The notes beneath the pieces are model-generated. The model was not told the DNA's origin and did not search any database. It saw nothing but the letters and a program-made list of their open reading frames with translations. A DNA stretch of 64,000 bases from a virus: IMG/VR virus record IMGVR_UViG_3300008735_000002, positions 1 to 64,000 of that record. One strand, written 5' to 3'. Shown here piece by piece: positions 8,991 through 50,822 of the stretch. The position numbers were made by a program, and so were the translations under genes. The first letter of the stretch is position 1. Every line of letters starts with the position of its first letter.

Positions 8991-9334
8991 GGGGGTGTAA
9001 CGGCTTCGACAGGGTAACGAAGGAGTATAAGAGTGCAAGTGGTCTCACGAAACAGCAGACCTAAATCGCGGTTTCAAAAAGATAGTTGCAAATAACAACA
9101 ATCACTTCGAATACGCCTTAGCTGCGTAATTGGGTGGTTGCCTAAAACCATCTATCCAATTTAGGCTAAGTGAAGTAGCATCACTGAAATAAAAGAATGC
9201 TCGAATTTCATCTCCGCGGATGGAAGGGTTTAACAAGCGGAAATTTTGGGAGTTTAGAAAAACTTCCTAAACTTGTGAATGACTTGATCCCTGAATTTCT
9301 TTGGACGCGGGTTCGACTCCCGCCGCCTCCACCA
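8991..9334 (+). ncRNA. ssrA: tmRNA (SsrA); tag peptide ANNNNHFEYALAA
   Basis: 5' GGGGGTGTAACGGCTTCGAC; 3' T-arm GCGGGTTCGACTCCCGC plus CGCCTCCACCA. Acceptor stem has the G3:U alanine identity pair. Resume context ATAGTT-GCA; tag ORF 9088-9129 ends ALAA-stop. Confidence 0.97.
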
Positions 9335-17800: not shown

Positions 17801-19381
17801 TTATTCATCATCCCTGACCATTGCGCACCCAATCGATAACAAATTAATAGAAACACTCGACGCATTCTGGAGCGCTAATCGAGTAACCTTCGCAGGGTCT
17901 ACAATTCCAGTCTTCATGAGATTACAAACATCGCCATCAATTCCATTATATCCAAAATTCTTTGGTTTTTCAACAATCTTTTCTAGAATAACCTCAGGAA
18001 CTGACCCGCAATTAGAAGCAATCTGCTTAAGAGGTTCACATGCAGCGCTGAACAAAATCTTGTGACCAATCGAGAGAGAGTCTTTTTTATCAAGCTGCAA
18101 TTTAGCAACTTTTGCGAGCAGTGAACCTCCACCGGCTACGATCCCTTCTTGCATTGCTGCCTTCGTAGCATAGAGCGCATCTTCAACGCGGTCTTTTCTT
18201 TCGCTTATTTCAGCTTCAGTTGCTCCACCTACTCGTAAAATACCGATTCCGCTATTCATCCTCTTCACGCGGCGAGTTAAAACGCTAATCATTTCTGCAT
18301 CGCCTATGTACTCGTTCGCTGCTTCTTTTATCTGCTGAATACGGTCTTCCCTAGACTCGCTATCTCCTGTTGCGTCAATGAAGATGGTGCGGTATCTATA
18401 CGCTGCTATCTTCTTACAGGATCCCAAATCAGTGAGCTTCACATTTCGCCAGCTCGCGGGCTCACCCGTCAAGAGATCGGCTCCCAAAAGAATAGCTAAA
18501 TCATGGAGCGCTTCAAGACGAGAAGTCCCAAATTCTGGAGCAGCTAACACGCATGCCTTGATGAGGTTCTTTGTGTTGTTGAGAATAAGCCCCTGTAGCG
18601 CATCTCCCGTTGTCTCTGGGCCGATGATCACAAATGGTCTATTCTCACGTGCTGCTTCTTCCATAAAATGCATAATGTCGTGTATAGAGCTTATGCGTTG
18701 ATCAGTGACCAAAATTGCTGGATTGAAAAGTTCACAAGACATCCGAGCAGGTTTGTTCACAAAATATGGAGAAACATATCCTCTATCCAATTCACACCCG
18801 TCGACAACTTCAAGCGAAGAATCGAAACCCTTGGCTTCATCAACAGTTACTGTGCCATGATCCCCTACTGCCTTTATCGCCTCTACAATCAATTCAGCTA
18901 GATCTGGCTCATTATTAACAGAGATATTAGCGACCCTCCTTAAGTCTTCATCAGACTTTACAGGGACAGCGTTCTTTTCGATTTCATGGCAGAGAAGAGT
19001 TGTTGCCTCCCTTATACCGTCTCGAATCGCTCTTAATTCGTGCCCTCCAGCAAGAGCCTTCAACCCTTCTTGAAATATTGCGCAAGCCAAAACCGTCGCA
19101 GTTGTAGTTCCATCACCGGCTTCTTCTGCCGTACGCTGTGCAGCTTCTCTCACAATCTGAACGCCCAAATTTGCAAAACGATCTTTTAAATTGATGGCCC
19201 GAGCTACTGTCACCCCATCTTTGGTCAAGACAGGGGCGGAACCAGGGTGTTCAATCAAAACATTTTTCCCAGATGGGCCCATCGTTACACGGACAGCATC
19301 AGCCAATTGCTCAACACCGACCCTAACTAAATCTCGGGACTCTTCTGAAAATGTTATAACACGATTTTCTTGCTCAATCAT
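17801..19381 (-). CDS. groEL: GroEL-like group I chaperonin
   Basis: VTMGPSGKNV, TKDGVTVA, AGDGTTTATVLA, VGGATEAE, GIVAGGG, GIVDPAKVTR; no GGM tail. Confidence 0.95.
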   Translation of the reverse strand: MIEQENRVITFSEESRDLVRVGVEQLADAVRVTMGPSGKNVLIEHPGSAPVLTKDGVTVARAINLKDRFANLGVQIVREAAQRTAEEAGDGTTTATVLACAIFQEGLKALAGGHELRAIRDGIREATTLLCHEIEKNAVPVKSDEDLRRVANISVNNEPDLAELIVEAIKAVGDHGTVTVDEAKGFDSSLEVVDGCELDRGYVSPYFVNKPARMSCELFNPAILVTDQRISSIHDIMHFMEEAARENRPFVIIGPETTGDALQGLILNNTKNLIKACVLAAPEFGTSRLEALHDLAILLGADLLTGEPASWRNVKLTDLGSCKKIAAYRYRTIFIDATGDSESREDRIQQIKEAANEYIGDAEMISVLTRRVKRMNSGIGILRVGGATEAEISERKDRVEDALYATKAAMQEGIVAGGGSLLAKVAKLQLDKKDSLSIGHKILFSAACEPLKQIASNCGSVPEVILEKIVEKPKNFGYNGIDGDVCNLMKTGIVDPAKVTRLALQNASSVSINLLSIGCAMVRDDE

Positions 19382-26121: not shown

Positions 26122-27174
26122 CTATTCATCGCTAGCTAAAGCTGTTATAACACCTTGCACTTTCTTTCCATGAGGTAGACCATCAAAATATGCGACTGCT
26201 CGATCATAGAGCCCTGGCTCCAGTTGATCGAGGTCTTCCTCTGCAATGCCCTGACTCGTAGCATCTCTTAACATTTTCTTATAAACGTTATTTAGAAATG
26301 TGTCCCACATAAATGTTCTCAACGCGGGCCACGCATTGATTTCTGGATTTGATCCATACTCTGAATTAAATGCAGCGGCGTCGTCTTGATCGATCAAGTC
26401 TAAGTCGAGCATTGTATCCATCATAAATTTCAAAGCAACGCCCTTTAACTTATCTATTTCCCCAGGAAACGTCTCCATTGATAACCGCATTTTTTTCAGA
26501 GCTTCACCCTCAATTTTTTTGACACCGCTTACACTAAGTCCCATGTCTTGTGCAACATCTTCGAGAGTTGCTTCATCTCCTCTTTGCCACTCGCCAGTGC
26601 GGGTGTCTCCAGACGCTATAGCACGCAGCTCTTCGTCTGTTGGCTCTCCGTACTCACCCTCTTCGTCTTCATCGTAGTGGACACCGAGCTTAAAATCATC
26701 CCAACCTTCTGCCAAAAGCGACATTAGCAGTTGGTTCCTAATAATCGCTCTTGCCTCTTGGACTTCTTCTGGTTCATTCATACCAGCTTGATCAACCACT
26801 TCTACACTGACACGCTCATGATCATCAACAAACTTCTTAAATTTCTCGTATGTCTTTTCAACGACATCCGCTTCATCGGGAAGACGTTGCGCAAGAGTGT
26901 ATAGAGATCGAGCAAGCTGTTGATTATTTATGGGTGTATATTCGGGATCATCAACCGGCGGCTCATCCTCGCTTAACTGGGTAGCCATCTGCGGTTGTGG
27001 GTTGATAGGCATATCCAACGGATCATCTTCTTCAGGACCGTCATCGGGCCACTGAGTACCTGCACGATCTCCGTCTGCCCATGACGAATTACTGTACTCT
27101 GGGTACGTGTCTTCAAAGAGCAATCTTCTTGCTTCTTTTCTAAAATTATTAAAGTTCGCTTTCATTGCAACCAC
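26122..27174 (-). CDS. acidic protein with an embedded sigma70 region-4-like HTH
   Basis: TLEDVAQDMGLSVSGVKKIEGEALKKMR; RLLFE and LLAE sites. Confidence 0.6.
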   Translation of the reverse strand: MVAMKANFNNFRKEARRLLFEDTYPEYSNSSWADGDRAGTQWPDDGPEEDDPLDMPINPQPQMATQLSEDEPPVDDPEYTPINNQQLARSLYTLAQRLPDEADVVEKTYEKFKKFVDDHERVSVEVVDQAGMNEPEEVQEARAIIRNQLLMSLLAEGWDDFKLGVHYDEDEEGEYGEPTDEELRAIASGDTRTGEWQRGDEATLEDVAQDMGLSVSGVKKIEGEALKKMRLSMETFPGEIDKLKGVALKFMMDTMLDLDLIDQDDAAAFNSEYGSNPEINAWPALRTFMWDTFLNNVYKKMLRDATSQGIAEEDLDQLEPGLYDRAVAYFDGLPHGKKVQGVITALASDE

Positions 27175-31345: not shown

Positions 31346-31845
31346 TAGTCCACCTCGTATTCTTTTTCAAATTCTTCTTGGTCTATAACAAAGACAACCT
31401 CATCCTCATCCGGCTCGTCTGTCAGGGCAGCAACAGCCTGAACCCTGCTATCGATATCAACCTCAGGAGAGGGGTCGAGCAACTCAGGAATCCTGGGATC
31501 TGCTGTAACCTCATCATCTTCATTCAGCGCGCCGAGCTCATCGGGCCCTCCCAATACTTCTTCTCCCTCTGGGGGAGCATCGAAACGTGGTTCTTCTGGT
31601 TCACGTAAAACTATCTGAACTTCGCCAGGTTTATCCCCTTTTACATGAGCGATTGTATACTCATATCCAGATTTCTTGTGACGTACCTTTAGATCGGGAG
31701 AAAGAATTAAATTACCTCTATCATCGAAAACGTCAGATTCACCCATCACCTCATGAAGGCGCTGGCGGTATTCATGTCTTAAGACGTCTAAAAGAAATGT
31801 AGTGTCCGTCATTTGGATCTCCGTATTCCTGCTAATACTTCCCAC
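31345..31845 (-). CDS. acidic hypothetical protein
   Basis: Packed ORF. Confidence 0.6.
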   Translation of the reverse strand: MGSISRNTEIQMTDTTFLLDVLRHEYRQRLHEVMGESDVFDDRGNLILSPDLKVRHKKSGYEYTIAHVKGDKPGEVQIVLREPEEPRFDAPPEGEEVLGGPDELGALNEDDEVTADPRIPELLDPSPEVDIDSRVQAVAALTDEPDEDEVVFVIDQEEFEKEYEVD

Positions 31846-33842
31846 CTCGCAGACTCCACTATTACTCTATCTGTTCGGAACTTCTTGTCTAAATAATTGT
31901 AAACTGATTTGTGAACCACTCCGCGAGTTAATCGAGTATTATTTTCAGAGGTCATCTTTAACATGGCTGAAGCGATTTGTGGGATCAAGTCTGAAAGCGT
32001 ATCAAAGTTTTTCTTTGCGAAGCGCTTGCTCTTGATAAGAGTCTCTTCATGCTCTCCCCTCCACTTCTGTATCGCTTTTGCCACTTCTTTCTCAACAGCT
32101 TTCGAAGCCCCATCCAAAGCTACATTCACCAAATCCTTCAGTCCAGTCATTCGCTTCTTAGCAGTTAAAGAACTTTGTGATGTCTTTGAAAGGCCGGCTG
32201 CCCAGTTGTCTAAAGCGTTGGCAACAGCCACACTTGGTGCCTCTGGTTCTGCAGCTGCTTCTTGTGCAGCGGTCTCAAGTTCTGCCTGAGCGGTCTCTTG
32301 CTCTTCTGCAGCTTCTTCTTCAGAAGCCGGCGCGCCCTCTTCACCCTCAGCGGCTTCATCCTCACCAACTGCGATCTTTTTATCTAGCAGCTCTGCATCG
32401 TTAACAGCTGTTGCCCATGCTGTAACAGCCTTTTCATCAGGGGCGGCGCCAATAGGTTTTCCAACATCTGCAAATGCTGTCACAATATCTTCAATCGCAA
32501 TCGCTTCCTCTTCTTGTTCAAATAGAAGCGAAGAAAGACTTGACTCGTGCATCTTGGTTCCGGTCGGTTCGTGGTGCGCAGCAAAAAGCTTGGAAGCATC
32601 AGGGTCTGATAACAATGTTTTTACTAGTTCGCCACCCGTATCTCCAAGATGCTCATCACCAAGATCTGCTAAAGCGTCTAAATTCTTAAAGGCGCTAGCG
32701 ACCCTCTCATCAGCTGCTTCTTCTGCTGTGTTTGCCATATCAGCGACTTGTTCAGGAGTAGCACCATCTGGTCCAGAAGTGTAAAGAGCAAGAATCTGTG
32801 CAACAATTTCCTGCTGTCTAACAGCCAGGTCAGCTAATTTTCCAGCCAAGCCTTGCTTTAAAGCTTCAGCATCAGCGGGCTCAAGCTCGCCGCTTGCTGC
32901 ATCGAATACATCTTTCGCAACCTCAGGAGACTTTTGCAACGCAGCAGCTCCTTGCTCGGCTGCCTTCATGTCTACCTTACCGCTCTTTGCTTGCTCAGCG
33001 CCAGCTTGTGCAGCAGCAGCTGCGGCAGACGCCTCACCTGTCTCTTCACCAACCTGCTCGACCGCACCGGTCAGTTTCTGCTGAGCTGTTGACATATTGA
33101 GAGCAACAAACTCTTCGAAGGGAGAAGCCATGATAGCTTCGACCACAAGATCACCCTCAACAAGATTCCCGGTTTTGTCACCGCTGAATAATGCAGCGAT
33201 GAATCCGACTACCTTACTAAAGAACCCGCCGCCCTCAGCTTCGGCAGCTTTAGTTCCAGCTTCCCATGCACCGTTGAACCAGTCTGGAACCTTATAGGTC
33301 TTCTCGACTGCTTTTGCAATATCCTCAGTTGTAGGAAAGTCAGGGGCATCATCACCGCCCTCATCAGCAGCTTTTGCCAATTCACCAATTGGCTTTGTTG
33401 AGTCTTCAGGTTTATATTTTTGTAGCTCTGCCTTCACTTGCTCTATACAAGTGATCAAAGCAGCAAACTCACCAGAGGCATCTTGAATTTGCTTAGTGAT
33501 ATCTGATGCGGTTTTTGCTCGAGCTTTTCCATCTGTCCCTTCGTCATAAAGCGAGTCAACATTTGCGGCAATATCATTGTACAGTGACTTAATCGGCTCG
33601 AGAGCTGACTGCCATTCCGACTTCGCGGCGCCCGCTGCCAGCTGGGCTTCTACTTCACCAATGGTCGCTTCAAATTCTTTAATCGTGGCGTCCATCTCCT
33701 TTGCGTCTTCATCATTTAGCTCTTCCAAAAGGAGAGCAGCCATGTTACCTTCACGAAGGAGGTCTTCAGTCAAGGCGTTGGTATATGTCCTAACAAAGGC
33801 TCGCCCGGAGGTGACACCTGCTTTATAAATAATTCCGCTCAT
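31809..33842 (-). CDS. large A/E-rich helical putative virion (internal/ejection) protein
   Basis: 677 aa; LLRE and LLFE sites; C-terminal ARWEVLAGI; two ATANTTA-like boxes upstream. Confidence 0.55.
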   Translation of the reverse strand: MSGIIYKAGVTSGRAFVRTYTNALTEDLLREGNMAALLLEELNDEDAKEMDATIKEFEATIGEVEAQLAAGAAKSEWQSALEPIKSLYNDIAANVDSLYDEGTDGKARAKTASDITKQIQDASGEFAALITCIEQVKAELQKYKPEDSTKPIGELAKAADEGGDDAPDFPTTEDIAKAVEKTYKVPDWFNGAWEAGTKAAEAEGGGFFSKVVGFIAALFSGDKTGNLVEGDLVVEAIMASPFEEFVALNMSTAQQKLTGAVEQVGEETGEASAAAAAAQAGAEQAKSGKVDMKAAEQGAAALQKSPEVAKDVFDAASGELEPADAEALKQGLAGKLADLAVRQQEIVAQILALYTSGPDGATPEQVADMANTAEEAADERVASAFKNLDALADLGDEHLGDTGGELVKTLLSDPDASKLFAAHHEPTGTKMHESSLSSLLFEQEEEAIAIEDIVTAFADVGKPIGAAPDEKAVTAWATAVNDAELLDKKIAVGEDEAAEGEEGAPASEEEAAEEQETAQAELETAAQEAAAEPEAPSVAVANALDNWAAGLSKTSQSSLTAKKRMTGLKDLVNVALDGASKAVEKEVAKAIQKWRGEHEETLIKSKRFAKKNFDTLSDLIPQIASAMLKMTSENNTRLTRGVVHKSVYNYLDKKFRTDRVIVESARWEVLAGIRRSK

Positions 33843-33900: not shown

Positions 33901-34320
33901 CTACGTTGTGTAGCGCCTAACTGAAACTCCTGCTGACCGTAATAGCTCGATACCAGACAAATCGCGGTATTCTTCATCAAAAACTACCTCTTTTACGCCA
34001 CCGTTAATAATAGCCTTCGCGCACATCTTGCAAGGGCTTAAGGTAATATACATTATCTTTTTACCGCGATTATTATAGTCGCACTTAAGCAGTGCGTTAA
34101 TCTCTGCATGAATCATCCCTGAATTTCCTGGCTCAGCAGACTCAACCTCATTTGGTCCGCCTGAATAATTTCCATTATAACCGACAGCGAGTACTTGAGT
34201 ATTTTCATCTGTCACGATCACTGCACCTACCTGGTACCGTGGGTCATACGATCTACGAGCTATGGAGTGAGCAAAACCCATCCATATTTCATCCCAATGT
34301 GGTCTACCATCCGAGCTCAT
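33901..34320 (-). CDS. dCMP deaminase
   Basis: VGAVIV, GYNG, IHAEINAL, TLSPCKMCAKAII. Confidence 0.92.
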   Translation of the reverse strand: MSSDGRPHWDEIWMGFAHSIARRSYDPRYQVGAVIVTDENTQVLAVGYNGNYSGGPNEVESAEPGNSGMIHAEINALLKCDYNNRGKKIMYITLSPCKMCAKAIINGGVKEVVFDEEYRDLSGIELLRSAGVSVRRYTT

Positions 34321-34990
34321 TCAAGTACCCCTTAAGGCTATCACAGCTTTCGACTTCATCTCCCCAAACTGACCATCCAGGTAACTGGTGGCGAGCAAAC
34401 AGTTCAACCTTCGTCTGGTCTGGAAACATCTGCTCAATGCGAGTTCGAACTTCATCTGGTTTCTTACTATGCTCTTCACGGAGGTGCTCTAAATATTGTC
34501 GTACATTTCTGGCACCTCGAGGTCGAGGAATTTTTCCATTTTTTCCAACAAGACAAAGCTCACACTGCGACATGGTATAAAATCCGGGATTAACTCTCAT
34601 CTTATTCCAAACGAATGCAACGGTAGAATATTTTAGCCCCCAGCTTTTTAGAAGCTCAATCCCCTGATCAAGATGAGGGTTTGTTACCCACATAAAGACA
34701 AGAGAATCTTCGTTGAGAAGCTTCTGCATTGGAAACTGCTTTAGCTGCTTTAGCTTGAGTGTACCATAATGCTTGCGAGCCCCACCTGTATCACCCATTC
34801 CAGGTTTAGAATGTTGTAGCTGGCCCTTGTAATCCCATGGTGGATCCAAATAGACAATGTCAAACCTCGGCTTCGGTTGTGTCAAAAAGTTCTTCAATGT
34901 GTTTCTCCTTAGGTAAAGTAAATCCAGCAGCTTTCTTGTGGCCACCGCCACCAAAGCTCTTAGCAATTTCTGATACGTCAACGCTCTCAT
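34304..34990 (-). CDS. MT-A70-family amino-methyltransferase (true start probably near 34885)
   Basis: YLDPPW catalytic motif, FMWVT, WGLKY, HSKKP, ELFAR, WGDE. Confidence 0.9.
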   Translation of the reverse strand: MRALTYQKLLRALVAVATRKLLDLLYLRRNTLKNFLTQPKPRFDIVYLDPPWDYKGQLQHSKPGMGDTGGARKHYGTLKLKQLKQFPMQKLLNEDSLVFMWVTNPHLDQGIELLKSWGLKYSTVAFVWNKMRVNPGFYTMSQCELCLVGKNGKIPRPRGARNVRQYLEHLREEHSKKPDEVRTRIEQMFPDQTKVELFARHQLPGWSVWGDEVESCDSLKGYLNELGW

Positions 34991-35705
34991 GAAAAGCTCG
35001 TAAGCTGACTTTCGTTATTTCATCTTCATGATCCCAATACCAGATCAAAGCAAAATCGCAATCAGGAGAAAGCCGTGCTCCGATTTCTGACATCCAGTGA
35101 GAAGCATTTACTACCAGCACTTCCTTCCCATCCATCATGCGGGGCTGCGCTTTTTCACAGACCTTTTTGACAACAGTCTTACTGTACGCCAGGATGTAAG
35201 ATCCTCGCTTACATGCATCATCAAACACAGAGTCATCTTCAAACTTTTCGAACTCTTCAAACTCAAACGGTACCATATCGAATGCTGCACTAAACTCTTT
35301 TGAATACTCAAGTTCCCACTTCCACAGGTCTCGATCCTGAATATATTTGATAAACTTCGGTGGCTCCTTACCCGGGTGGAAATATTCCCACGCCAGTATT
35401 GCACCGCTCTTTGTCATATCAAAATGAGTGTTAGAGATATCATGAAGTTCAACCATCGCAGACTTGTGATGATCGATAATCATAAGATTTTTGGCTTTCT
35501 TTATCATCTTCTTCGTTGTAGATTTATCATAAGAGAAATCCAGAATAACTACATTTTTTCCTTTAACATCGGGTGGCGGGGTACCATGCTTACAAGCGTA
35601 ATACTCTGCTCTATTCCCTAACTGCTTCCATGCAGAATATGCCGCCCCGAAACCGTCTGTGCAGTCAGCATGATAGATTACGACATTAACTGAATTTGGG
35701 TCCAT
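34860..35705 (-). CDS. DHH/DHHA1 phosphoesterase (NrnB/Pde2-like)
   Basis: YHADCTDG, LDFS, IDHH, SGA, DRDLW, SLR, GGGGHKKAAGF. A TATAAT at 35713-35718 overlaps the first ATG, which favours the Met at 35705. Confidence 0.88.
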   Translation of the reverse strand: MDPNSVNVVIYHADCTDGFGAAYSAWKQLGNRAEYYACKHGTPPPDVKGKNVVILDFSYDKSTTKKMIKKAKNLMIIDHHKSAMVELHDISNTHFDMTKSGAILAWEYFHPGKEPPKFIKYIQDRDLWKWELEYSKEFSAAFDMVPFEFEEFEKFEDDSVFDDACKRGSYILAYSKTVVKKVCEKAQPRMMDGKEVLVVNASHWMSEIGARLSPDCDFALIWYWDHEDEITKVSLRAFHESVDVSEIAKSFGGGGHKKAAGFTLPKEKHIEELFDTTEAEV

Positions 35706-35734
35706 TGTACTCATTATACCCTCGCGATAGAAAT

Positions 35735-36175
35735 TTAATTATGTTTTTTCGGATGAACAAAAGTATATTTTTTGTCCTCTGTTGTGTCCCTTCCATAATC
35801 ATCTTCCAGCCGTATCGGTTCGCCACAATTGCCATCAGAAATTTCAAATACCACACTATCATCTTGAGCAGTCAATCGATACGCGCAACCTGCCTGAATA
35901 TTCAGAATGTCTCCCTTTTTTAGGGTGACCAAGCGCGCTGGCTCTTGAATTGAATTATGAAAGTGTCTTTCATCTGCGATTTCTGCAAGGATCTCTCCAT
36001 GTTGAATATACAGAACTTCATTTTTAGTAGGATGGAACTTAAGACTCGTGCGATGACCTGCTCGAAGGTGAATTTCTTTTCCATGAAACAAGCCGTTCCA
36101 CTGAATTTCATAGCCCCAAGGCTTCTCTTCTGAAGAAGATGTACTGGCCCATACGCATCTATTCATCTGTCTCAA
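35735..36175 (-). CDS. cupin protein (mannose-6-phosphate isomerase type II C-terminal-like)
   Basis: EEKPWGYE, TSLKFHPTKNEVLYIQHG, RLEDDYGR. Confidence 0.75.
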   Translation of the reverse strand: MRQMNRCVWASTSSSEEKPWGYEIQWNGLFHGKEIHLRAGHRTSLKFHPTKNEVLYIQHGEILAEIADERHFHNSIQEPARLVTLKKGDILNIQAGCAYRLTAQDDSVVFEISDGNCGEPIRLEDDYGRDTTEDKKYTFVHPKKHN

Positions 36176-37184
36176 TCAACTCCCACCATCTTAATGTTTG
36201 ATTTAGACCATCCCAGAATTTAACCTGAGGGATCCATCCAAGTTCTTCACTAATCTTATTTATACACCCGAGAGTGTGCTTGACATCGCCCTGTCTTTCT
36301 GGTGCGTGAGCAATGGAAAGTTCAGAAAATTGCTCATTAAGTGTTGCAAGAATTTGGTTATTCGAAACAGCTGTGCCAGTTGCGACGTTGTACATCTCAA
36401 ATCCCAGAATAGCCGGGTAATCAGCAGCAACTAACATCGCATTTGCTACGTCTTTTACATACACCATGTCCCTAGTTTGTTCACCATCACCATCACTTCG
36501 AAGCGGTTCACCGTTCTTTAGTCGTGTACACCACGCAGCAACAGCAGTTGAATAGGGAGAATCCCCCAACTGTCCCGGACCGTACACATTAAAGAACCTT
36601 AGCGCAACAAAATCCATCCCATACAGGCGATTGTACATTTCTCCAAACTGCTCTACCACCAACTTCTGCAACCCGTAGGGAGATGTCGGATCTTCTGCTT
36701 CATTCTCATTTGTGGGAAGTCTAGAAACTTCGCCATAACATGCAGACGAGGACGCGAAAACAAAACGATCGATCTTATCAATGGCAGCAGACATTAATTC
36801 AATTGTTTTTTGAACATTCGTATGCGTCGTAAGAGCTGGAAATTTAACTGAATACTCTACACGAGGATTTGCGGCCAGGTGAAAAATCACATCATACCTT
36901 CCGGCTGCGACGCGCTGTAGAATGGGTCCTGCAGCGAAATCTGATGTAATAACAAGCAATGAACCCGGTTCTTCTACTATCGACGGACCAGTATTGTTTT
37001 GATCATACAGGTGTAGAACGTGCTCAGTAACCGTTCTAAATTCAAGTCCGCTTAAAGTTGCCAGGTCTCCATTCGATAAATCATCAACCCCCTCGACACT
37101 CCATCCGGCAGCAACAAGCTGACGTGTTACATGACTACCAATAAAGCCACAGCAACCTGTGACTAATGCTTTACGTGTATGCAC
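36159..37184 (-). CDS. NAD-dependent NDP-sugar epimerase (GalE/WbpP-like extended SDR)
   Basis: GCCGFIGS, HLAA, ASSSACYG, YGLQK (YxxxK), LRFFNVYGP, RDMVYV. Confidence 0.92.
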   Translation of the reverse strand: MHTRKALVTGCCGFIGSHVTRQLVAAGWSVEGVDDLSNGDLATLSGLEFRTVTEHVLHLYDQNNTGPSIVEEPGSLLVITSDFAAGPILQRVAAGRYDVIFHLAANPRVEYSVKFPALTTHTNVQKTIELMSAAIDKIDRFVFASSSACYGEVSRLPTNENEAEDPTSPYGLQKLVVEQFGEMYNRLYGMDFVALRFFNVYGPGQLGDSPYSTAVAAWCTRLKNGEPLRSDGDGEQTRDMVYVKDVANAMLVAADYPAILGFEMYNVATGTAVSNNQILATLNEQFSELSIAHAPERQGDVKHTLGCINKISEELGWIPQVKFWDGLNQTLRWWELIETDE

Positions 37185-37728
37185 AAAAATCCTCCGCGTT
37201 TAAGTCTTTACTGATTCCTAAAAACATTTTAATCTTCTTTACCTGTTTGTTCAAGTCCATATCATCGGTTTCCAAAATAAGACATTCACATGTCGTCGTT
37301 TCATAAAACGTTCGATAATGTTTATCCAGGACTTTCAGCATTTCCGGTGGTAACTGATCTGGATACTGGTCATCAACCAAACCAGAGTAATCTTTTCGTA
37401 AACAAAGAATGAATTTGCCGTTTACCTCTGCAAACTTATCATCCATCCATGTAATTGCGTCAAGATCAGTAGGACGCTCGAATGCGCTAGCATAAACAAG
37501 CTCACAAGGATAAAAGCGGTCTAAGATAACTGACGCATCTGTTTGGTGCATGAAATCCATCAAAAACGGACCGCCGTACCGCAAAAGGTTAAGAAAGTAA
37601 TCTGGGCTGTCCAATTGTGTTTTCCATTCCCCGGAATTCTTAAAAACAGGAATACCAGTCTGGCGAGAAAGCTCAGCAGCGATATTCGACTTTCCAGTCA
37701 TATCAGGTCCGATGAATGCTATCTTCAT
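37171..37728 (-). CDS. deoxynucleotide monophosphate kinase (thymidylate-kinase-like P-loop)
   Basis: GPDMTGKS Walker A and ILDRFYPCELVY (DR motif). Confidence 0.75.
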   Translation of the reverse strand: MKIAFIGPDMTGKSNIAAELSRQTGIPVFKNSGEWKTQLDSPDYFLNLLRYGGPFLMDFMHQTDASVILDRFYPCELVYASAFERPTDLDAITWMDDKFAEVNGKFILCLRKDYSGLVDDQYPDQLPPEMLKVLDKHYRTFYETTTCECLILETDDMDLNKQVKKIKMFLGISKDLNAEDFCAYT

Positions 37729-38780
37729 GCCCTATAATCACTCAGAATGTGTTCAAGCAAATCAGTCCTATATTCAGGCCTGGGATCGATCACGGTCCTC
37801 AGAGCCTCCTCTTGTGCATCAACAAGAGCTTTCCGTTCGGTAGCGTCCAGCGTCGCGATCCACTTAGTTTTTTCTACAACATCCAACCAGGTTTCAACCA
37901 GCAAAGACTTATCAGCAAGTCCTACCGGAATAGCGTGCTGAAACTCGATCGGAACGAGAGCAGGTACATTACTCTTAATCGCTTCAAAGAATCGACCAGT
38001 GATATTTCCGTAAGGAGTGTAAGCCGGCTTTGTAATATGAGTTACAGTAATTGATTCGTTCAGCACTTTGAAGATATCTTTATAAGCCAGCCGGGGACCG
38101 AATGCCACATTCGGTGTCTGAGCCAGCAAAACGGCGGGATCGATTCTCTCAGGTGATTTATTCAACCAGTTTCCATAAATCATAGTCTGAATACCAGCTT
38201 CTCTGAGGACAGGGCTGGGGGTCGTATAGTATTTCGCGAATTGCTCTTCACGCTCGTAGTTATTCCCAACGTAAGTATAGTTGTAAGAGTACTCGACTGG
38301 CTCGAAATACCTCTTCATATAATTGCACCATGGAATCGTAATTCGCTTACGGGTCTGATGACGAGGAGAAACACACGCGTCTGCTAAGACGGCGTTAGGC
38401 CAACGAAGCTCTTCTTCGGGAGTCATCTTAAGGTCACCATCGACAATAACAATTGGAATACCCTGCCCATGGTAATAATCAAGAACCTCACACTGACGAT
38501 TGTAGTCCGGCTCAGCGGGATTTTCTCCGCTATTTTTCCAAGTTGGCCAACGCCATTCGACATACAAGATATCACCATCCGGAAATCCAGCGTCATCATA
38601 TTCTACGCCGGGATATTGCTCATCATCCCGCATACGCTGTAGCTGAACAGGGGTATGACCACGCTTTAGTAATTCATTTACCCAATCCACACGATTGCCA
38701 CGCTCACCGTCTGGTGTGTTGACAACGCTGTTCTTTTCAAGGGGAGTAATAAACCCCCAAAAACTGTAAAGTACTCTCAT
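37725..38780 (-). CDS. GT-B glycosyltransferase resembling T4 DNA beta-glucosyltransferase
   Basis: By-eye match to T4 BGT as remembered: VIVDGDLK (TDIRL), YVGNNYERE (YGGSFRSGQRE), MIYGN (EFFGN), NITGRFFEAIKS...IEF (FITLRVWETMAS...EEF). Confidence 0.7.
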   Translation of the reverse strand: MRVLYSFWGFITPLEKNSVVNTPDGERGNRVDWVNELLKRGHTPVQLQRMRDDEQYPGVEYDDAGFPDGDILYVEWRWPTWKNSGENPAEPDYNRQCEVLDYYHGQGIPIVIVDGDLKMTPEEELRWPNAVLADACVSPRHQTRKRITIPWCNYMKRYFEPVEYSYNYTYVGNNYEREEQFAKYYTTPSPVLREAGIQTMIYGNWLNKSPERIDPAVLLAQTPNVAFGPRLAYKDIFKVLNESITVTHITKPAYTPYGNITGRFFEAIKSNVPALVPIEFQHAIPVGLADKSLLVETWLDVVEKTKWIATLDATERKALVDAQEEALRTVIDPRPEYRTDLLEHILSDYRA

Positions 38781-38801
38781 TATTTCTCCGAGTTACTATT
38801 C

Positions 38802-38830
38802 ATTATAGCAAGTCTAAGCATTGTTTTCAA
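38802..38830 (-). promoter_or_regulatory. sigma70-type promoter for the glycosyltransferase operon segment
   Basis: TTGAAA-17-TATAAT with TGn extension. Confidence 0.75.
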
Positions 38831-39932
38831 GCTCACGCTTAGCTTTTACAAGAGCAGAACCAATCACCTGATGCATATCATAGTACTTGTACTCTGCCAA
38901 TCTTCCACCAAAAATTATCCCATCTTGTTCAGCAGCGAGGGCTGCATACTTCTTAAACATAGCACCGTTCTTCTCATCATTGATCGGATAATAGGGCGTC
39001 TTACCCCTGCTATATTCGTCAGAGTACTCTCTTGTAATGATTGTATTCTTAAGCTTACCCGCTGTTGCTGGTAAAAAATGCTTGTGCTCTACAATTCTTG
39101 TGAATGGAACATCTGGGTGTGTATAGTTCACTACAGCGTTTCCTTGAAAATCACCCTCGAGCTCTTCATGCTCAAACCGCAACGTCCGATACTCTAGCTC
39201 ACCATAGCGAAATCCGAAGTATTCATCGATCTTTCCAGTAAACACAACCTTGTCAGCAAGAGAATCAAACTCCTCCTTATCTGAAAAGTAATCAACACCC
39301 GTCCATACTGAAACACCTTTCAGCATATTTGCCACCATTGAAGTATAACCGTCAATCGGGATACCCTGATATTTGTCAAAGAAATAATTCTCTTCAAATA
39401 CCATCCTAATCGGTAGACGCTTAATAATAGAAGCCGGTAGTTCTTTCGGATCACGCTGCCACTGCTTCATTGTATAACCCTTGATAAACGTCTCATACAC
39501 CTCACGTCCAACCTGGGATAAGATCCAGTCCTCAAGGTTGTCTGGATTCTCGCATGGGATCCTGACTTCTTCTAACTTCTTCTCAGCTTCTGCTGGTGTC
39601 ATAACACCCCAAAGCTGGTGTAGAGTCATCAGATTAATTGGGAATGAAAAGATCCGATCATTGAAGCGAATTTTTGGCTTGTTTACATAATTGTTAAACG
39701 TAGCAAAACGATTAACATAATCCCAGATCCTCTCATTATTCGTGTGAAAAATATGAGCACCATAGACATGAACGTCTACACCGTTCCGCTTTTCGGAATA
39801 AACGTTCCCACCGATGTGAGGGCGTTTATCAATTACCAGACACTCTTTACCAGCATCAGTCATCTCTCTAGCGAATGTCGCTCCAAAGATGCCTGCTCCT
39901 ACAATCAGATAGTCGTACTTTCGACGGCTCAT
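38814..39932 (-). CDS. glf: UDP-galactopyranose mutase
   Basis: IVGAGIFG, HIGGNVY, YGAHIFHT, YQGIP, YRTLRFE, TRIVEHKHF, PYYP, GRLAEYKYYDMHQ. Confidence 0.95.
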   Translation of the reverse strand: MSRRKYDYLIVGAGIFGATFAREMTDAGKECLVIDKRPHIGGNVYSEKRNGVDVHVYGAHIFHTNNERIWDYVNRFATFNNYVNKPKIRFNDRIFSFPINLMTLHQLWGVMTPAEAEKKLEEVRIPCENPDNLEDWILSQVGREVYETFIKGYTMKQWQRDPKELPASIIKRLPIRMVFEENYFFDKYQGIPIDGYTSMVANMLKGVSVWTGVDYFSDKEEFDSLADKVVFTGKIDEYFGFRYGELEYRTLRFEHEELEGDFQGNAVVNYTHPDVPFTRIVEHKHFLPATAGKLKNTIITREYSDEYSRGKTPYYPINDEKNGAMFKKYAALAAEQDGIIFGGRLAEYKYYDMHQVIGSALVKAKRELENNA

Positions 39933-40960
39933 TGCCTTCTCCTAATATTGAAACGATAACCGCTAAATTTCAAATTTTCAAGCATTTCTTTAGCTAACTC
40001 TTTATCTCCAAGCTTTCTCATTCTATCAGCCGCTAAGATAATACCCCAATCGTGCCACATAAATGCGTCCCTTGACGAATACGCAAAGGCTCTTCGAAAG
40101 CCATGCTCAACGGCAGATGAGCTGTTGCACTTACGAAGGTCTTCTTCAAAACTCATCAGCTTCTCAATAAAGAAATTTCTTTGATCTGAACAGTCACACT
40201 CAATCGGTGGCATCGGTCCATTCCGCTTGTACAGCTCAAACTGTGATCGATTTACATTCGATGTTTTAAGAATCGTCTCGGCCATCTCAAAATGTCGTTC
40301 ATAGATATGCAGAGAATTGCTCATATGAGTGTACGACCCGAGCTCGACCCCGAGTTCATTGGCAAGAAGCTCTTGAAAAAGAGTAAAAGCTGGAATGTCA
40401 TAAGCGATTCCAAAAATTACATCAGAACTTCTCATATTAACAATCTGGTGCAGCTTTCCATCACGGATAAAAAATTGAAGTGCAAGTGTACAGGGGACAT
40501 CTAGCTTCGCATCTACGCTATCATCAGGAACACGAAGATGCATGACTGCCCGACGCGAATCAGGATCCCTCTGCAATTCTTCTATGATATATTCCCACTG
40601 ACTAAATCGTCCTTGAGCGATTTTGTGGTGAGGCTGAAACAGTCTTGCGCCGTACGCAGAGTTTGCTGTTACTCCATCATCAGAAATATCGCGCCAAAAA
40701 TTAGAATAATTCGCAATCCACTCCGTCTTATTGCTTCCTGACAAATACCAGATAAGCTCGGCGACCATATAAGTCATGCTAAACTTTCTACCGGTAACGT
40801 AAGGAATACGATCACGTGGATTTGTAATCGTAAAAGAAGCTCCTAAGAGTTCTTTGACCCTCTGCCCGCGTGGAGCAGATTCGTAAGTCGGATTTTCATA
40901 AACATGTCTTACCAAAGACAAGTAACAGTGAGTGAATGATTGATATGTGCCAATATGCAT
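39929..40960 (-). CDS. thymidylate-synthase-fold dCMP-modifying enzyme (T4 gp42 hydroxymethylase-like)
   Basis: GASF, AELIWY, NSAYG, DPDSRR, catalytic PC, MRSSDVIFGIAYD (Asp in place of the dUMP-specifying Asn), SLHIYERH. Confidence 0.88.
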   Translation of the reverse strand: MHIGTYQSFTHCYLSLVRHVYENPTYESAPRGQRVKELLGASFTITNPRDRIPYVTGRKFSMTYMVAELIWYLSGSNKTEWIANYSNFWRDISDDGVTANSAYGARLFQPHHKIAQGRFSQWEYIIEELQRDPDSRRAVMHLRVPDDSVDAKLDVPCTLALQFFIRDGKLHQIVNMRSSDVIFGIAYDIPAFTLFQELLANELGVELGSYTHMSNSLHIYERHFEMAETILKTSNVNRSQFELYKRNGPMPPIECDCSDQRNFFIEKLMSFEEDLRKCNSSSAVEHGFRRAFAYSSRDAFMWHDWGIILAADRMRKLGDKELAKEMLENLKFSGYRFNIRRRQ

Positions 40961-45592: not shown

Positions 45593-45979
45593 CTATGCAT
45601 TAAGACGCTCACAAATAATCCCATGTTTCTTTACATAGGCATCAAAAAATTCCTTATGATCCACGCCAGCCAAAACAACAATCGCCAAAAAATAATTGAA
45701 CGCATCAATCATTTCTTCTAAAAATTCCTCACGATCGAATTCTGGCACACCGTAAGTCGCTTCACGATGATTCTTCCAATTCTTTAAGTGAAGTAAGGCC
45801 TCAAACAGTTCTTCCATTCCCCGGAATGCAAATTCCCGAATAGCCTGTTGGTTCTTTTTCTTGCTAAGATCCACTGGCCAGGGAGGATACGCATCAGGAA
45901 TGCGCTCGTTGATTAAGCTCATGAATTCTTCTCGTAATGAGAATACTTCTTCCAGCTTATTGTTCGACAACTTCTTCAT
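45593..45979 (-). CDS. all-alpha NTP pyrophosphatase (T4 gp56 dCTPase/dimeric dUTPase/MazG-like; start moved to 45979)
   Basis: MEELFEAL...KNWK...EEFLEEMIDAFNYF (two ExxE/ExxD clusters). Confidence 0.8.
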   Translation of the reverse strand: MKKLSNNKLEEVFSLREEFMSLINERIPDAYPPWPVDLSKKKNQQAIREFAFRGMEELFEALLHLKNWKNHREATYGVPEFDREEFLEEMIDAFNYFLAIVVLAGVDHKEFFDAYVKKHGIICERLNA

Positions 45980-46247
45980 CCGTTGCGTTCGTAATATTCT
46001 CGTTAACCTCAGCCAACATACGCTCAAGATTATTATTAAAATTTTCCGCGTACTGGGGGTGAACTTCTATTTTGCCATCATTCGCATTAATCGTAAAACT
46101 CACTGCTCGAAAATGATCAATGATATCAGTCCCTGTAAGAATGGCAAGCTGTAGTAGTTGCGCGACATGACCGATCGCATTGTCGGATAGATTGTGAACG
46201 ACCCCGGTAACATCCAGGTCATCTGATACTTCAGAAGTAATTTCCAT
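45957..46247 (-). CDS. hypothetical protein
   Basis: SD GGAG and promoter upstream. Confidence 0.6.
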   Translation of the reverse strand: MEITSEVSDDLDVTGVVHNLSDNAIGHVAQLLQLAILTGTDIIDHFRAVSFTINANDGKIEVHPQYAENFNNNLERMLAEVNENITNATDEEVVEQ

Positions 46248-46314: not shown

Positions 46315-46743
46315 TCAGCCATACTCTTTAGTCAATAAAAAACCATAATAATCATTAAGAGCATGATCTTCAGGGTAAGTGCTCTTCCACTTTCCCTTTA
46401 TAAAAATTTCATAGGTGTCATCGGCATATTTCCCGCAACCATAAAGCTCTGCGGCTCTATCCCATTTTTTAGTTACAAATTCCTCGCTAAATCTTTTAAG
46501 CGTCTTTGCGCGGCGATTTGCTAGCCCAAGAGGTCGGATCAAATTCTTCAAATCATTTTCATCACACTCAACCAGGGATTCCGGATTTGGGAACTTTTCG
46601 AAAAATTCCGCTATGATGGGTTCCACTTGTTTACGAGATGTTTGATTCAAAAGTAAACAGACAATGAGTATCTTCCACCCGTCAGGCCAGAACCGCTCTT
46701 GTAATAAATCATACGGAGACTCGGGAGGGATCCATGTTACCAT
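46315..46743 (-). CDS. MBD4-like HhH-GPD mismatch DNA glycosylase
   Basis: LLNQT, PLGL..RRA, LYGCGKYADDTYEIF, YPEDHALNDY (human MBD4: HPEDHKLNKY). Confidence 0.88.
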   Translation of the reverse strand: MVTWIPPESPYDLLQERFWPDGWKILIVCLLLNQTSRKQVEPIIAEFFEKFPNPESLVECDENDLKNLIRPLGLANRRAKTLKRFSEEFVTKKWDRAAELYGCGKYADDTYEIFIKGKWKSTYPEDHALNDYYGFLLTKEYG

Positions 46744-47406: not shown

Positions 47407-47967
47407 CTATTTTCTCGATGTACCCTCTAAAATACGCTGTTTAATTTCAGTTGTGCTTATGCCGCCTGTGTAGGGAATATAGACAAGCACCATCCCGTTT
47501 TTTTCAATCCATTCTTGTGTAAATTGCATTTGAGAATAATAGTCTTTTTTTGCCCAATCATCACCAATCGCGATGATGTGCGGATTAACTTTCATGATTG
47601 TCTGCTTGCTGTCTTCCCCAGACAAATTGGGAACAACTGCTGATACATACTCGCAATTTAATAGCGACTTTTCTCTTTCTTCGTACGTCATGATAGGGGG
47701 TGAGCCCTTAAACTTGGCGATAAAACCATCTAGATTAAGCGCCACAATAACTTCATCTGCGAGATGACTACATTGTCTCAAAAAATTAATGTGTCCATAA
47801 TGGAATAAATCGAATGTTCCACCCGTGTACAACACTCTTTTTTTCGCTGGCTCATCACTCATCTTACCACCGTATATTTGAAACAGAACGCAACCATTTC
47901 TGAGAGTGGTTTGTTGGGTCGACACAGCATTCGAAACCACTCGCCAGTGACTGCCTCTCCATAACAC
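47407..47967 (-). CDS. cytidylyltransferase (TagD/RfaE-like HxGH nucleotidyltransferase)
   Basis: YTGGTFDLFHYGH, GDDW, YTGGISTT; true start probably MSDEP. Confidence 0.88.
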   Translation of the reverse strand: MLWRGSHWRVVSNAVSTQQTTLRNGCVLFQIYGGKMSDEPAKKRVLYTGGTFDLFHYGHINFLRQCSHLADEVIVALNLDGFIAKFKGSPPIMTYEEREKSLLNCEYVSAVVPNLSGEDSKQTIMKVNPHIIAIGDDWAKKDYYSQMQFTQEWIEKNGMVLVYIPYTGGISTTEIKQRILEGTSRK

Positions 47968-48660: not shown

Positions 48661-49368
48661 CTACGTCATTTTACGTTCTCGATAAGCCGATATTGTTTCA
48701 GGCCAGATTTCTTCGGCAATTTGTAAGCACGCTTTAGCTAGCTGCTGTATCTCCCACTGGGCACTTTCATGCAAACGCAGCTCGATAAATTTTAATAAAT
48801 TATTGAGATTAACGGTTCCGTAATACTCTGTATATAAACTTTGCGGAAGCACAGCACGAGCCTGTTCACGACACACTCCGGAAGACATTAGTCTATGGTA
48901 AAGAGTAAGACATGTCTTGTTATGCGTCCTGACCACGCTTGACGCAGAAGTGCCATAATCGGGATCGCTTAAATCAGGGATCATCACAGGATCAATTTTC
49001 TTATTTAAATTAGAGGCTTGACGATTGGACTTGTGCTGTGTTCTAAACTCTTGAGGTTCATAAAAGCGAATGTCTACGTCAGTGTATCTTCGAGATATCT
49101 CATTATAAGACCAAGTTCTATGACGATGGTGCTGGCTACGCACAAAGAGAGGTACAGTAAAGCGAAAAGTGATAACGTTGTGCTCAAGCGTTGACGTATG
49201 CTTGTGATTGATGAGATAACGAATAAGCTTCTTATCTTTTCCATCTAACTCTTCCCTAACTTTTCCAAAAGAAACCCTAGCGCTGTTCACCACTGTTAAA
49301 TCGGATCCCATATGCTCCACGTATTCGACTGCGCCAATGGCGTCATCATAAAGTTCGATTCTTTTCAC
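48661..49368 (-). CDS. thyX: flavin-dependent thymidylate synthase
   Basis: VNSARVS, HTSTLEH, RHRTWSYNEISRRY, REQARAVLP, FIELR...AQWEI. Confidence 0.95.
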   Translation of the reverse strand: MKRIELYDDAIGAVEYVEHMGSDLTVVNSARVSFGKVREELDGKDKKLIRYLINHKHTSTLEHNVITFRFTVPLFVRSQHHRHRTWSYNEISRRYTDVDIRFYEPQEFRTQHKSNRQASNLNKKIDPVMIPDLSDPDYGTSASSVVRTHNKTCLTLYHRLMSSGVCREQARAVLPQSLYTEYYGTVNLNNLLKFIELRLHESAQWEIQQLAKACLQIAEEIWPETISAYRERKMT

Positions 49369-49811: not shown

Positions 49812-50822
49812 CTACAAAATAAATCTACAAATTTGTAGCGCAACTCGATATGGATCACAACCCGATGATGGACGCCGGTCCTCAAGATATCCGCGCCATC
49901 CAGCTGTTGGAACTGAATTAGGGATCCGGACTGACGCTCCCCTGGAGGCGATTCCGCAACTAAATTCTTCCATGCTTGCTGTCTCAAATCCGCCTGTTAA
50001 CCTCAAGGCGTTATCTGGTCCATACTCACGAATCGATTCATCATGATATTTTTCCATGTTGGCGATAACCCTATCAAAGATTTCTTTTTCACCGGATTCG
50101 CGCATTGATTTTGTAGAAAAATTAGTATGACATCCTGACCCATTCCATCCAGCATGTGGCTTAGGGTGCCAATCTATCCCGAGTACTAAGTCTTCTGCCA
50201 TTAGCTCCAGCAAATAGCGGCTTACCCAAAGGGCGTCTGATGCTTCTAGCGGATCTGCGCCAAAACACTGGTATTCCCATTGACCTGGCGAAACCTCTGC
50301 GTTGTAACCCACAACTCGAATCCCTAGTGAATTACAAAAAGATGCATGTTCGCGAACGAGCTTCCGATACTTCACACTTCCACCCGATGAGCAGTAATAG
50401 CGAGAATCTTTTATAGGCTCACCCTGGTCTGGCCAAAAAACGTTCTTGCCTTCTGACGTGATAAAGTACTCTTGCTCAAACCCTATCCACAACTCTTTTG
50501 TAGCAATGCCATCTTCGACCAATTTACGTAGCTTGGCTCGATAATTTGTTTCATGTGGTGTTCTTTCCTCATCTGGTAAACACACTTCACAAATAGCCAC
50601 GTAATGATTATCTGCTACTTGATATACTCGGTGAGGCTTTAAAATTCTTTCTGAATCTTCTGTCGGAGCCTGTCCTGTGGAAGAACCGTCAAAATTCCAC
50701 TCAGGTACTTTTAGCTCTACTTCACCACCCTCATTAGGCGTAAGCTGGACCATTTTTGTTTTTGACCGGAGTGCGGGATGATCAAACCCGTCAACCCAGA
50801 GATAATCTAGATGAACTAACAA
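49812..50822 (-). CDS. glnII: glutamine synthetase type II
   Basis: WNFDGSSTGQA, GFEQEY, NAEVSPGQWEYQ, HPKP...WNGSGCHTNFST, RLTG..ET, RGASVRIP, GYLEDRRP. Confidence 0.93.
   Translation of the reverse strand: MLVHLDYLWVDGFDHPALRSKTKMVQLTPNEGGEVELKVPEWNFDGSSTGQAPTEDSERILKPHRVYQVADNHYVAICEVCLPDEERTPHETNYRAKLRKLVEDGIATKELWIGFEQEYFITSEGKNVFWPDQGEPIKDSRYYCSSGGSVKYRKLVREHASFCNSLGIRVVGYNAEVSPGQWEYQCFGADPLEASDALWVSRYLLELMAEDLVLGIDWHPKPHAGWNGSGCHTNFSTKSMRESGEKEIFDRVIANMEKYHDESIREYGPDNALRLTGGFETASMEEFSCGIASRGASVRIPNSVPTAGWRGYLEDRRPSSGCDPYRVALQICRFIL

Follow-up and report, generated by a model that had tools for sequence, protein, structure and literature searches.

A block of nine genes beside a phage replicase gene appears to encode a T4-type pathway that replaces deoxycytidine with a glycosylated 5-hydroxymethyldeoxycytidine. 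It lies in the window, the 64,000-nucleotide stretch of viral DNA analyzed here, which makes up positions 1 to 64,000 of a 119-kb IMG/VR record (IMGVR_UViG_3300008735_000002). As CheckV puts the completeness of that record at 37%, the source would be a jumbo phage with a genome of roughly 300 kb. From gene content, active-site residues and predicted folds, we regard the pathway as likely, and we are more confident still that the modified base is 5-hydroxymethylcytosine (5hmC). The product here is most likely galactosyl-5hmC, probably in the furanose form. Because the gene for UDP-galactopyranose mutase (Glf) sits between those for the hydroxymethylase and the glycosyltransferase (GT), galactofuranose (Galf) would be the single most likely sugar on the DNA of this clade; a furanose is plausible, and we place Galf itself just short of evenly balanced. 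We offer a wider picture more tentatively: a family of jumbo phages, widespread and uncultured, in which a conserved GT with the fold of T4 beta-glucosyltransferase (BGT) and a core 4-epimerase would yield galactosyl-5hmC, a base not yet described, and in which a sugar-tailoring hot spot beside the GT would give a series of DNA sugars, galactofuranosyl-5hmC being the one made here.

Gene block and predicted pathway

All nine genes are on the minus strand, directly downstream of the gene for a 1206-amino-acid (aa) DnaE (Table 1), and their open reading frames (ORFs) and family matches agree with the coordinates and shared orientation given in the original prediction, an earlier reading of the same DNA. 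Neighboring genes in most of the block either overlap at their start and stop codons or are separated by no more than 33 bases: the ThyA-like gene and glf overlap by 4 bases, the GT and kinase genes by 4 and the kinase and epimerase genes by 14, and 33 bases separate glf from the GT gene. Searches of Pfam, PHROG and NCBIfam confirm the ThyA-fold enzyme, Glf, the short-chain dehydrogenase/reductase (SDR) epimerase, the DHH/DHHA1 protein, the MT-A70 protein and the dCMP deaminase, and give only weak matches for the transferase, the kinase and the cupin. The arrangement is not a product of chance, as it recurs in 46 IMG/VR contigs. The T4-like cytosine modification cluster proposed earlier, with a thymidylate synthase (TS) homologue of the dCMP hydroxymethylase type, a kinase, a BGT-fold GT and a dCMP deaminase among replication genes, is borne out, as is the position of Glf and the 4-epimerase among the DNA modification genes.

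In the proposed pathway, a MazG-like pyrophosphohydrolase would return dCTP to dCMP, part of which the dCMP deaminase would, by family assignment, divert to dUMP for conversion to dTMP by ThyX. The ThyA-like enzyme, as its active-site signature suggests, would hydroxymethylate dCMP; a thymidylate kinase (TMPK)-like kinase, assigned by fold and synteny, would phosphorylate the resulting 5-hydroxymethyl-dCMP (5hm-dCMP); and the DnaE replisome would incorporate the modified nucleotide. Fold and synteny likewise suggest that the GT-B transferase would then move a sugar from a UDP-sugar to its predicted acceptor, the hydroxymethyl group on the DNA. For the donor, the core GalE-type 4-epimerase would make UDP-galactose from UDP-glucose, which in this clade Glf would contract to UDP-galactofuranose.

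A hydroxymethylase signature in the ThyA-like enzyme

Among solved structures, the ThyA-like enzyme matches the CMP hydroxymethylase MilA best (E = 5e-47, against 1e-24 for thymidylate synthases), and it is 29% identical to T4 gp42. We aligned it with 12 relatives, Escherichia coli ThyA, T4 gp42 and two homologues from Rhizobium phage RL38J1. At positions 143, 146, 169 and 177, the window enzyme, all 12 relatives and T4 gp42 have D/C/D/D, whereas E. coli ThyA has L/C/D/N. The RL38J1 enzyme that makes 5-hydroxy-dCMP, our positive control for Asn169, has E/C/N/D. Lee et al. (NAR 2026, PMC13326640) identified the change of Asn177 to Asp as the selector of cytosine, an acidic residue at 143 as a marker of a non-methyl product and D169N as diagnostic of 5-hydroxycytosine synthases. 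By these rules, the D143/D169/D177 signature makes the window enzyme a predicted hydroxymethylase, not a hydroxylase, with the D169N mark absent from it and from every one of the relatives. The ThyA-fold residues R126, R127, Cys146, S167, H207 and Y209 are all kept relative to E. coli ThyA and T4 gp42, R126 and S167 being identical to those of T4 gp42.

MilA, from mildiomycin biosynthesis (PDB 5jnh and 5b6d), is also similar in length to the window enzyme and shares Asp143 and Asp177. Its preference for ribo-CMP has been traced to two residues, Lys133 and Ala176 (PMC5175136). Where MilA has these, the phage enzyme has Arg126 and Ser167, as in deoxy-specific enzymes, and a deoxy substrate is therefore expected.

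The window also encodes the flavin-dependent thymidylate synthase ThyX, and a PF00303 search found one ThyA-like gene each, and no second ThyA, in the window's record and in the 92%-complete relative G001. The ThyA-like gene is therefore not needed for dTMP. The dCMP deaminase, by family assignment, would feed dUMP to ThyX and at the same time shrink the dCMP/dCTP pool. A candidate dCTPase is the MazG-like protein encoded two genes upstream of dnaE, which also matches phrog_12184 and phrog_173 (nucleotide pyrophosphohydrolase). It seems a better counterpart of gp56 than the DHH protein, with a putative specificity for dCTP; the DHH protein had been considered as the gp56 analogue and was dropped in favor of the MazG-like gene, given the PF01503 and phrog_12184 matches of the latter. 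Close to the MazG-like gene and dnaE, on their upstream side, are genes for an HhH-GPD base-excision-type protein (46315-46743, minus strand; 54 bits) and a cytidylyltransferase-like protein (47407-47967, minus strand; 69 bits).

The predicted 5hm-dCMP kinase has a weak match to AAA_28 and a PHROG match to thymidylate kinase (P-loop kinase). Its P-loop and DR[FY]YP motif are invariant in 14 relatives, as are residues G7, D9, G12, K13, D70 and R71. The best fold matches of its model (predicted local distance difference test [pLDDT], 90.8) are SPbeta YorR, thymidylate kinases and deoxynucleoside kinases, with Z scores of 14-15.6.

A distant BGT-like glycosyltransferase

The original prediction called the GT BGT-like, and the fold bears this out. 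VIA-align ranks T4 BGT first against the GT model, a compact GT-B fold of two Rossmann domains (Z = 23.5; root mean square deviation, 3.6; 306 of 351 residues aligned), the next family following at Z = 21.8 and the best GT4 enzymes scoring about 1.7 below T4 BGT, and Foldseek places T4 BGT among its top matches. Family membership does not follow: a Pfam search gave no match to PF09198, the T4 BGT family (CAZy GT63), and only PF13524 at E = 7e-4, below the cut-off. A profile comparison with T4 BGT by hhalign is intermediate (E = 1e-4; probability, 57%), being confined to the C-terminal 100 residues, where it pairs equivalent positions. In this region, the invariant GT residues R263 and E266 align with the Arg and Glu of the UDP-binding ITLRVWE motif of BGT, which we take to be R269 and E272. 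A candidate, at most, for an equivalent of the catalytic base Asp100 of BGT is an invariant D114-G-D116, which in the model comes after an N-terminal-domain strand. By fold, then, the GT is a distant BGT-like, probably DNA-type transferase outside PF09198.

Metagenomes yielded 172 homologues of the GT. In a collection of 50,697 phage records, neither megablast of the 7-kb block nor tblastn of the GT gave a match, and the GT is thus without a cultured representative in that collection. A phmmer search of PDB sequences returned chance matches only, leaving no significant match to any characterized DNA glycosyltransferase in either search.

The donor branch

The assignment of Glf as a bona fide UDP-galactopyranose mutase is well supported. 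Besides TIGR00031 (Table 1), it matches Pfam GLF (261 bits) and, at its FAD-binding N terminus, NAD_binding_8 (77 bits); it aligns with E. coli Glf (1i8t) over residues 6-366 at E = 1.8e-130 and is close to Campylobacter jejuni UNGM as well. The window enzyme shares His63 and Lys171 with E. coli Glf; C. jejuni UNGM (4mo2) has Arg at both positions. Work by Poulin and coworkers in 2010 is said to have tied these arginines, Arg59 and Arg168 of UNGM, to the use of UDP-GalNAc. The residues in the window enzyme point to UDP-Gal rather than UDP-GalNAc as the substrate, which makes less likely the GalfNAc donor that was raised in the original prediction. The L-Araf donor raised with it is not supported, since the module holds no UGDH or UXS gene.

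The epimerase falls below the GalE equivalog level (TIGR01179, 153.7 bits against a cut-off of 262.3). Its best solved relatives are UDP-Glc/UDP-GlcNAc 4-epimerases, namely 4zrm (UDP-glucose), 6dnt, PelX (6wjb/6wj9), WbpP and WbgU, and a YGLQK (YxxxK) motif is seen in the epimerase alignment. As the 4-epimerase belongs to the core described below, the family-wide donor is probably of the galactose type and not glucose.

Table 1. Features of the gene block and of related loci in the window
Feature	Position	Strand	Evidence or assignment
dCMP deaminase	33901..34320	-	PF00383 (dCMP_cyt_deam_1), 80 bits; phrog_174, E 8e-50
MT-A70 family N6-adenine DNA methyltransferase	34304..34990	-	PF05063, 91.8 bits; phrog_359, E 1e-62
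DHH/DHHA1 phosphoesterase, 284 aa	34860..35714	-	DHHA1, 41 bits; phrog_4771, E 1e-78
Small cupin protein, 146 aa	35735..36175	-	Cupin_1, E 8e-4; phrog_7851
Extended-SDR NDP-hexose 4-epimerase (GalE/WbpP type), 341 aa	36159..37184	-	Pfam Epimerase, 162 bits
Thymidylate-kinase-like nucleotide kinase, 185 aa	37171..37728	-	Predicted 5hm-dCMP kinase (gp1 counterpart)
GT-B glycosyltransferase, 351 aa (predicted 5hmC-DNA glycosyltransferase)	37725..38780	-	AlphaFold model, pLDDT 90.9
Near-consensus sigma-70-like promoter (TTGAAA-17-TATAAT with TG), then GGAG ribosome-binding site	38802..38830	-	Just upstream of GT start
UDP-galactopyranose mutase (Glf), 372 aa	38814..39932	-	TIGR00031, 374 bits (cut-off 303.75)
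ThyA-fold dCMP 5-hydroxymethylase (gp42/MilA type), predicted, 343 aa	39929..40960	-	PF00303 (Thymidylat_synt), 133 bits
DnaE-type DNA polymerase III alpha subunit, 1206 aa	41014..44634	-	phrog_405, E 5.5e-226
MazG/PRA-PH-like NTP pyrophosphohydrolase, candidate dCTPase	45593..46027	-	PF01503, 25.1 bits (cut-off 21.3)
Flavin-dependent thymidylate synthase ThyX	48661..49368	-	PF02511, 168.5 bits, domain at 48697-49320

Related viral loci

A profile search gave 46 IMG/VR viral contigs with related loci, and 22 records were checked whole for Glf. The core of GT, kinase, TS homologue and 4-epimerase is kept together beside dnaE in nearly all of the loci, although the gene order varies and GT identities span 37-90%. 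The anchor itself, dnaE, was found in 45 of 46 (44-92% identity) and was missed only in L045. Frequent companions of the core are DHH, dCMP deaminase, and thymidine kinase or GMP reductase genes. Glf is found in the module only in the window's clade (16 loci) and once more, in the distant L045. The 16 loci amount effectively to one event, as their dnaE genes are 83-92% identical, and the GT tree requires two origins of Glf in the module, one in the clade and one in L045. The TS, glf and GT genes are thus linked in the clade and in L045 and not elsewhere in the set.

The slot beside the GT is occupied differently in other lineages. RmlB/UXS-like or GalE-like SDR genes adjoin the GT in L026, L029, L034, L045 and L046, and in L028 (7724-9474), genes for a DAO-family FAD oxidoreductase and a short-chain dehydrogenase lie between dnaE and the kinase gene, in the slot of Glf. 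The flavoenzyme, labeled as Glf by BLAST, is in fact of the DAO family, and the pair may provide a different route of sugar tailoring. From gene content, these swaps look like diversification of the donor. In two of these loci, the dnaE reading frame is broken in two, and a further ORF of 311-319 aa lies between the parts or overlaps them (L029, 4496-9466; L026, 524-5272); an intein, a homing endonuclease or an insertion resembling an intron may be the cause.

Some relatives also have large glycan-synthesis islands. That of G004 (L048; G004 99000-116000) encodes GT1/GT4-type transferases, UGDH, Glf, GMD, a DegT aminotransferase and a cytidylyltransferase. That of G016 (L049; G016 137500-154500) encodes GT1/GT4-type and GT2 transferases, UGDH, Glf, a carbamoyltransferase, a methyltransferase and a radical-SAM enzyme. 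The island of G001 (L050/L051; G001 30000-66000) is orthologous to that of G004 and has GT2, GT4 and a GMD orthologue, without Glf. Island content differs between phages, although a GT4 pair beside a PD-(D/E)XK nuclease is kept in G001 and G004. The UGDH of G016 (L049, 13532-14650) has a weak C-terminal intein-splicing match, with the remainder of the gene about 800 bases downstream, which suggests that it is interrupted by an intein.

Comparison with known systems

T-even phages make glucosyl-5hmC with the gp56 dCTPase, the gp42 dCMP hydroxymethylase, the gp1 kinase, the Cd deaminase and alpha- and beta-glucosyltransferases. The window follows the same logic with the same enzyme classes, including the gp42-type signature and a BGT-like fold of identical length, and even the local order of polymerase, hydroxymethylase (gp42) and transferase (beta-gt) is that of T4. 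Unlike T4, which has a family-B polymerase, the window has a DnaE replicase; its TS homologue is MilA-like, with a C-terminal extension of roughly 100 aa, its kinase is TMPK-like and its GT has no PF09198 match. It also encodes its own donor branch (4-epimerase and Glf), implying that the sugar is not glucose.

The closest published Glf-bearing system is that of RL38J1 (Pootjesviridae), whose DNA contains a hexosyl-5-hydroxycytosine in which galactose is the base-proximal sugar (Gal-Glc-Glc) and for which the authors proposed a UDP-Galf donor (Lee et al., NAR 2026, PMC13326640). Like the window, RL38J1 has a phage Glf (45% identical), GT-B transferases, a nucleotide kinase and a ThyA homologue whose substrate is dCMP. 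However, its D169N enzyme leads to 5-hydroxycytosine and an ether link at C5, whereas Asp169 in the window predicts a hydroxymethyl bridge; moreover, its Glf is not adjacent to its GTs, which have no detectable similarity to the window GT. In RB69 and DLP3 (Straboviridae), alpha-D-arabinofuranosyl-5-hydroxycytosine has been proven by nuclear magnetic resonance (PMC13326640). A furanose on phage cytosine, a phage-made UDP-furanose and GT-B enzymes acting on DNA are features of these phages that are proposed for the window too; unlike in the window, the sugar is a pentose made from ribulose-5-phosphate with no mutase, and the base is 5-hydroxycytosine. The view in the original prediction that no galactofuranosyl cytosine was known has in part been overtaken by these furanosyl cytosines and by the UDP-Galf proposal for RL38J1.

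Glf also occurs beside transferases in unrelated phages that have been cultured. In Lactobacillus phage ATCCB (MK504445), genes 0045-0047 encode, contiguously, a TS homologue with the D/C/D/D signature, a BGT-family GT (PF09198, 78 bits) and Glf. This is the same grouping as in the window, but the GT is of the true T4 BGT family, the phage is a small siphovirus of a Gram-positive host and the block has no epimerase; the isolation paper of ATCCB does not mention DNA chemistry. Actinomycetia phage DSL-LC01 has the order GT-Glf-x-MazG near TMPK-TS-dCMP deaminase, and in Aeromonas phage Aes012, the neighbor of Glf is a phrog_14998 relative of the DSL-LC01 GT, probably a DNA-type transferase. These Glf neighbors of roughly 350 aa (L059, 7116-8192, in Aes012; L060, 9285-10331, in DSL-LC01) both match phrog_14998, a candidate family of Glf-associated transferases distinct from that of the window. 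An hhalign comparison of the window GT profile with the ATCCB BGT, the DSL-LC01 GT and two Aes012 proteins gave no significant similarity, which places the Glf-adjacent transferases of these phages in families different from that of the window GT. A Galf-transferase-like gene in Enterococcus phages has also been the subject of speculation (Duerkop et al., 2016).

Which sugar, and on what?

Galf on the DNA is favored by several observations: Glf is packed between the TS and GT genes and entered the module twice independently; other lineages have other sugar-tailoring genes in its slot; G003, with Glf in its module, gave no match to GT1, GT2 or GT4; and the unrelated phages ATCCB, DSL-LC01 and probably Aes012 pair Glf with a DNA-type transferase. 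Several observations weigh against it. The source phage is uncultured and known here from sequence alone, and its record is incomplete. Glf is accessory in a family whose core includes the epimerase: within 10 kb of the GT it is missing from 30 of the 46 loci, and in the sequence available, sizable relatives, among them G011 (278 kb, 84% complete), lack it altogether. In G004 and G016, Glf is encoded about 90-105 kb from the DNA module, inside the glycan-synthesis islands, and the G004 enzyme is the nearest relative found of the window Glf (63% identity). The close relative G001, which has Glf in its module, has a GT2 and GT4 glycan island as well, whose transferases might consume UDP-Galf. 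The GT also has a strong promoter-like site of its own, downstream of Glf; it ranks at the top of 33 regional sigma-70-like sites (11/12 matches), as a consensus match only, and the regional total does not exceed the shuffled expectation. Finally, conserved positions 14 and 99 alone set the GTs of this clade apart from the other 29, and the independent case of Glf in the module, L045, shares neither, so that nothing points to an altered donor pocket. To judge from these residues, the transferase shows no adaptation to a furanose as its donor sugar, and UDP-Galf could serve another process. With Glf accessory, island-borne copies in G004 and G016 and the same GT residues across lineages, the earlier claim that the GT takes UDP-Galf is not established.

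These observations could be accommodated if the DNA carried a pyranosyl-5hmC (e.g., galactopyranosyl) in every lineage and Glf fed a separate machinery for virion or cell-surface glycans, its adjacency to the TS gene being incidental. The accessory status of Glf beside a core epimerase, the island-borne copies, the conserved GT residues, which do not change with the presence of Glf in the module, and the distance of about 110 kb between the GT2/GT4 island of G001 and its only Glf would all fit. We nevertheless consider this unlikely, given the two independent entries into the DNA module, the tight packing with the TS and GT genes and the repeated occurrence of Glf beside DNA-type GTs in unrelated phages. 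Moreover, neither the GT4 pair nor the GT2 genes of the islands track Glf, since genomes with Glf and genomes without it carry them alike, and in G003 (67% complete, with Glf in its module), no GT1, GT2 or GT4 was detected. An unchanged GT could also be reconciled with Glf in the DNA module by glycosylation in two steps, as in the gentiobiosyl-hydroxymethylcytosine of T2 and T6 or the Gal-Glc-Glc of RL38J1: the GT would add a pyranose, and a second transferase of the Glf lineages would add Galf. Chains of several sugars on phage cytosines are established (PMC13326640), and several unannotated ORFs lie nearby, such as that of a 677-aa protein at 31809-33842. Still, a search for a further GT-like gene came up empty for the module and for the 119-kb record, and the 677-aa ORF has no family match, is poorly conserved and gave an unusable Atlas model (pLDDT, 0.42), so that this route strikes us as improbable.

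A more radical departure would be that the GT does not act on DNA at all, the TS homologue and kinase giving plain 5hmC or none, and the GT, epimerase and Glf glycosylating a protein, a lipid or a small molecule. The GT indeed has no significant sequence match to characterized DNA glycosyltransferases, and T4 BGT outscores GT4 enzymes with non-DNA acceptors by only about 2 Z units. On the other hand, the best structural match is BGT, a protein of identical length, the GT, kinase and TS genes are neighbors in 46 contigs within a region of replication and nucleotide metabolism and T4 itself has the order polymerase, gp42, beta-gt; we think this explanation has slim prospects, slightly slimmer than those of two-step glycosylation. 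Least probable is a base other than 5hmC, either the 5-hydroxycytosine of RB69 and RL38J1 or a derivative of thymidine that stems from 5-hydroxymethyluracil. RL38J1, the nearest published precedent with Glf, does use 5-hydroxycytosine, and the dCMP deaminase of the block could feed a dUMP route. Yet Asp169 is present in the window enzyme and 12/12 relatives where the RL38J1 enzyme has Asn, Asp177 selects cytosine over uracil and the use of dUMP is accounted for by ThyX.

Significance

Glycosylated cytosines protect phage DNA against restriction enzymes and against some CRISPR nucleases, and they also serve as tools in epigenetic chemistry, as T4 BGT does already. If our favored reading of galactosyl- or galactofuranosyl-5hmC is correct, galactose or Galf on 5hmC would be a new base for the catalogue, and the GT would stand for a new family of transferases, one that no cultured phage represents in the collection that was searched. 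The comparison of loci suggests that the sugar donor, and not the transferase, is the part that diversifies across the family. Furanosyl phage cytosines (shown in 2025-2026) and the proposal of UDP-Galf for RL38J1 are already known, and the finding is less singular than the original prediction held; what would be new is the predicted hydroxymethyl-bridged galactose or Galf, attached by an uncharacterized GT family.

Other genes of the block and the window

The remaining genes of the block have less evident roles. The small cupin protein, which had no useful PDB match, is possibly involved in sugar tailoring; it is present both in the window's clade and in the Glf-less sister clade and is therefore not tied to Glf. 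The DHH protein has no informative solved relatives and is a conserved neighbor (46-94% identity in relatives). The MT-A70 protein would provide a separate DNA modification, and its gene is confined to the closest relatives among the 46 loci. At its longest, the MT-A70 ORF shares 131 bases with the DHH gene (34860-34990); the real start is probably further downstream, as the Pfam domain begins at residue 43.

Elsewhere in the window, ARAGORN predicts a tmRNA gene (8991-9334, plus strand; tag peptide ANNNNHFEYALAA) at the switch between minus- and plus-strand gene blocks. The minus strand also encodes a GroEL-type chaperonin (17801-19381; Cpn60_TCP1, 195 bits), a protein with sigma-70 region 4 (26122-27174) and a glutamine-synthetase-like protein (49812-50822).

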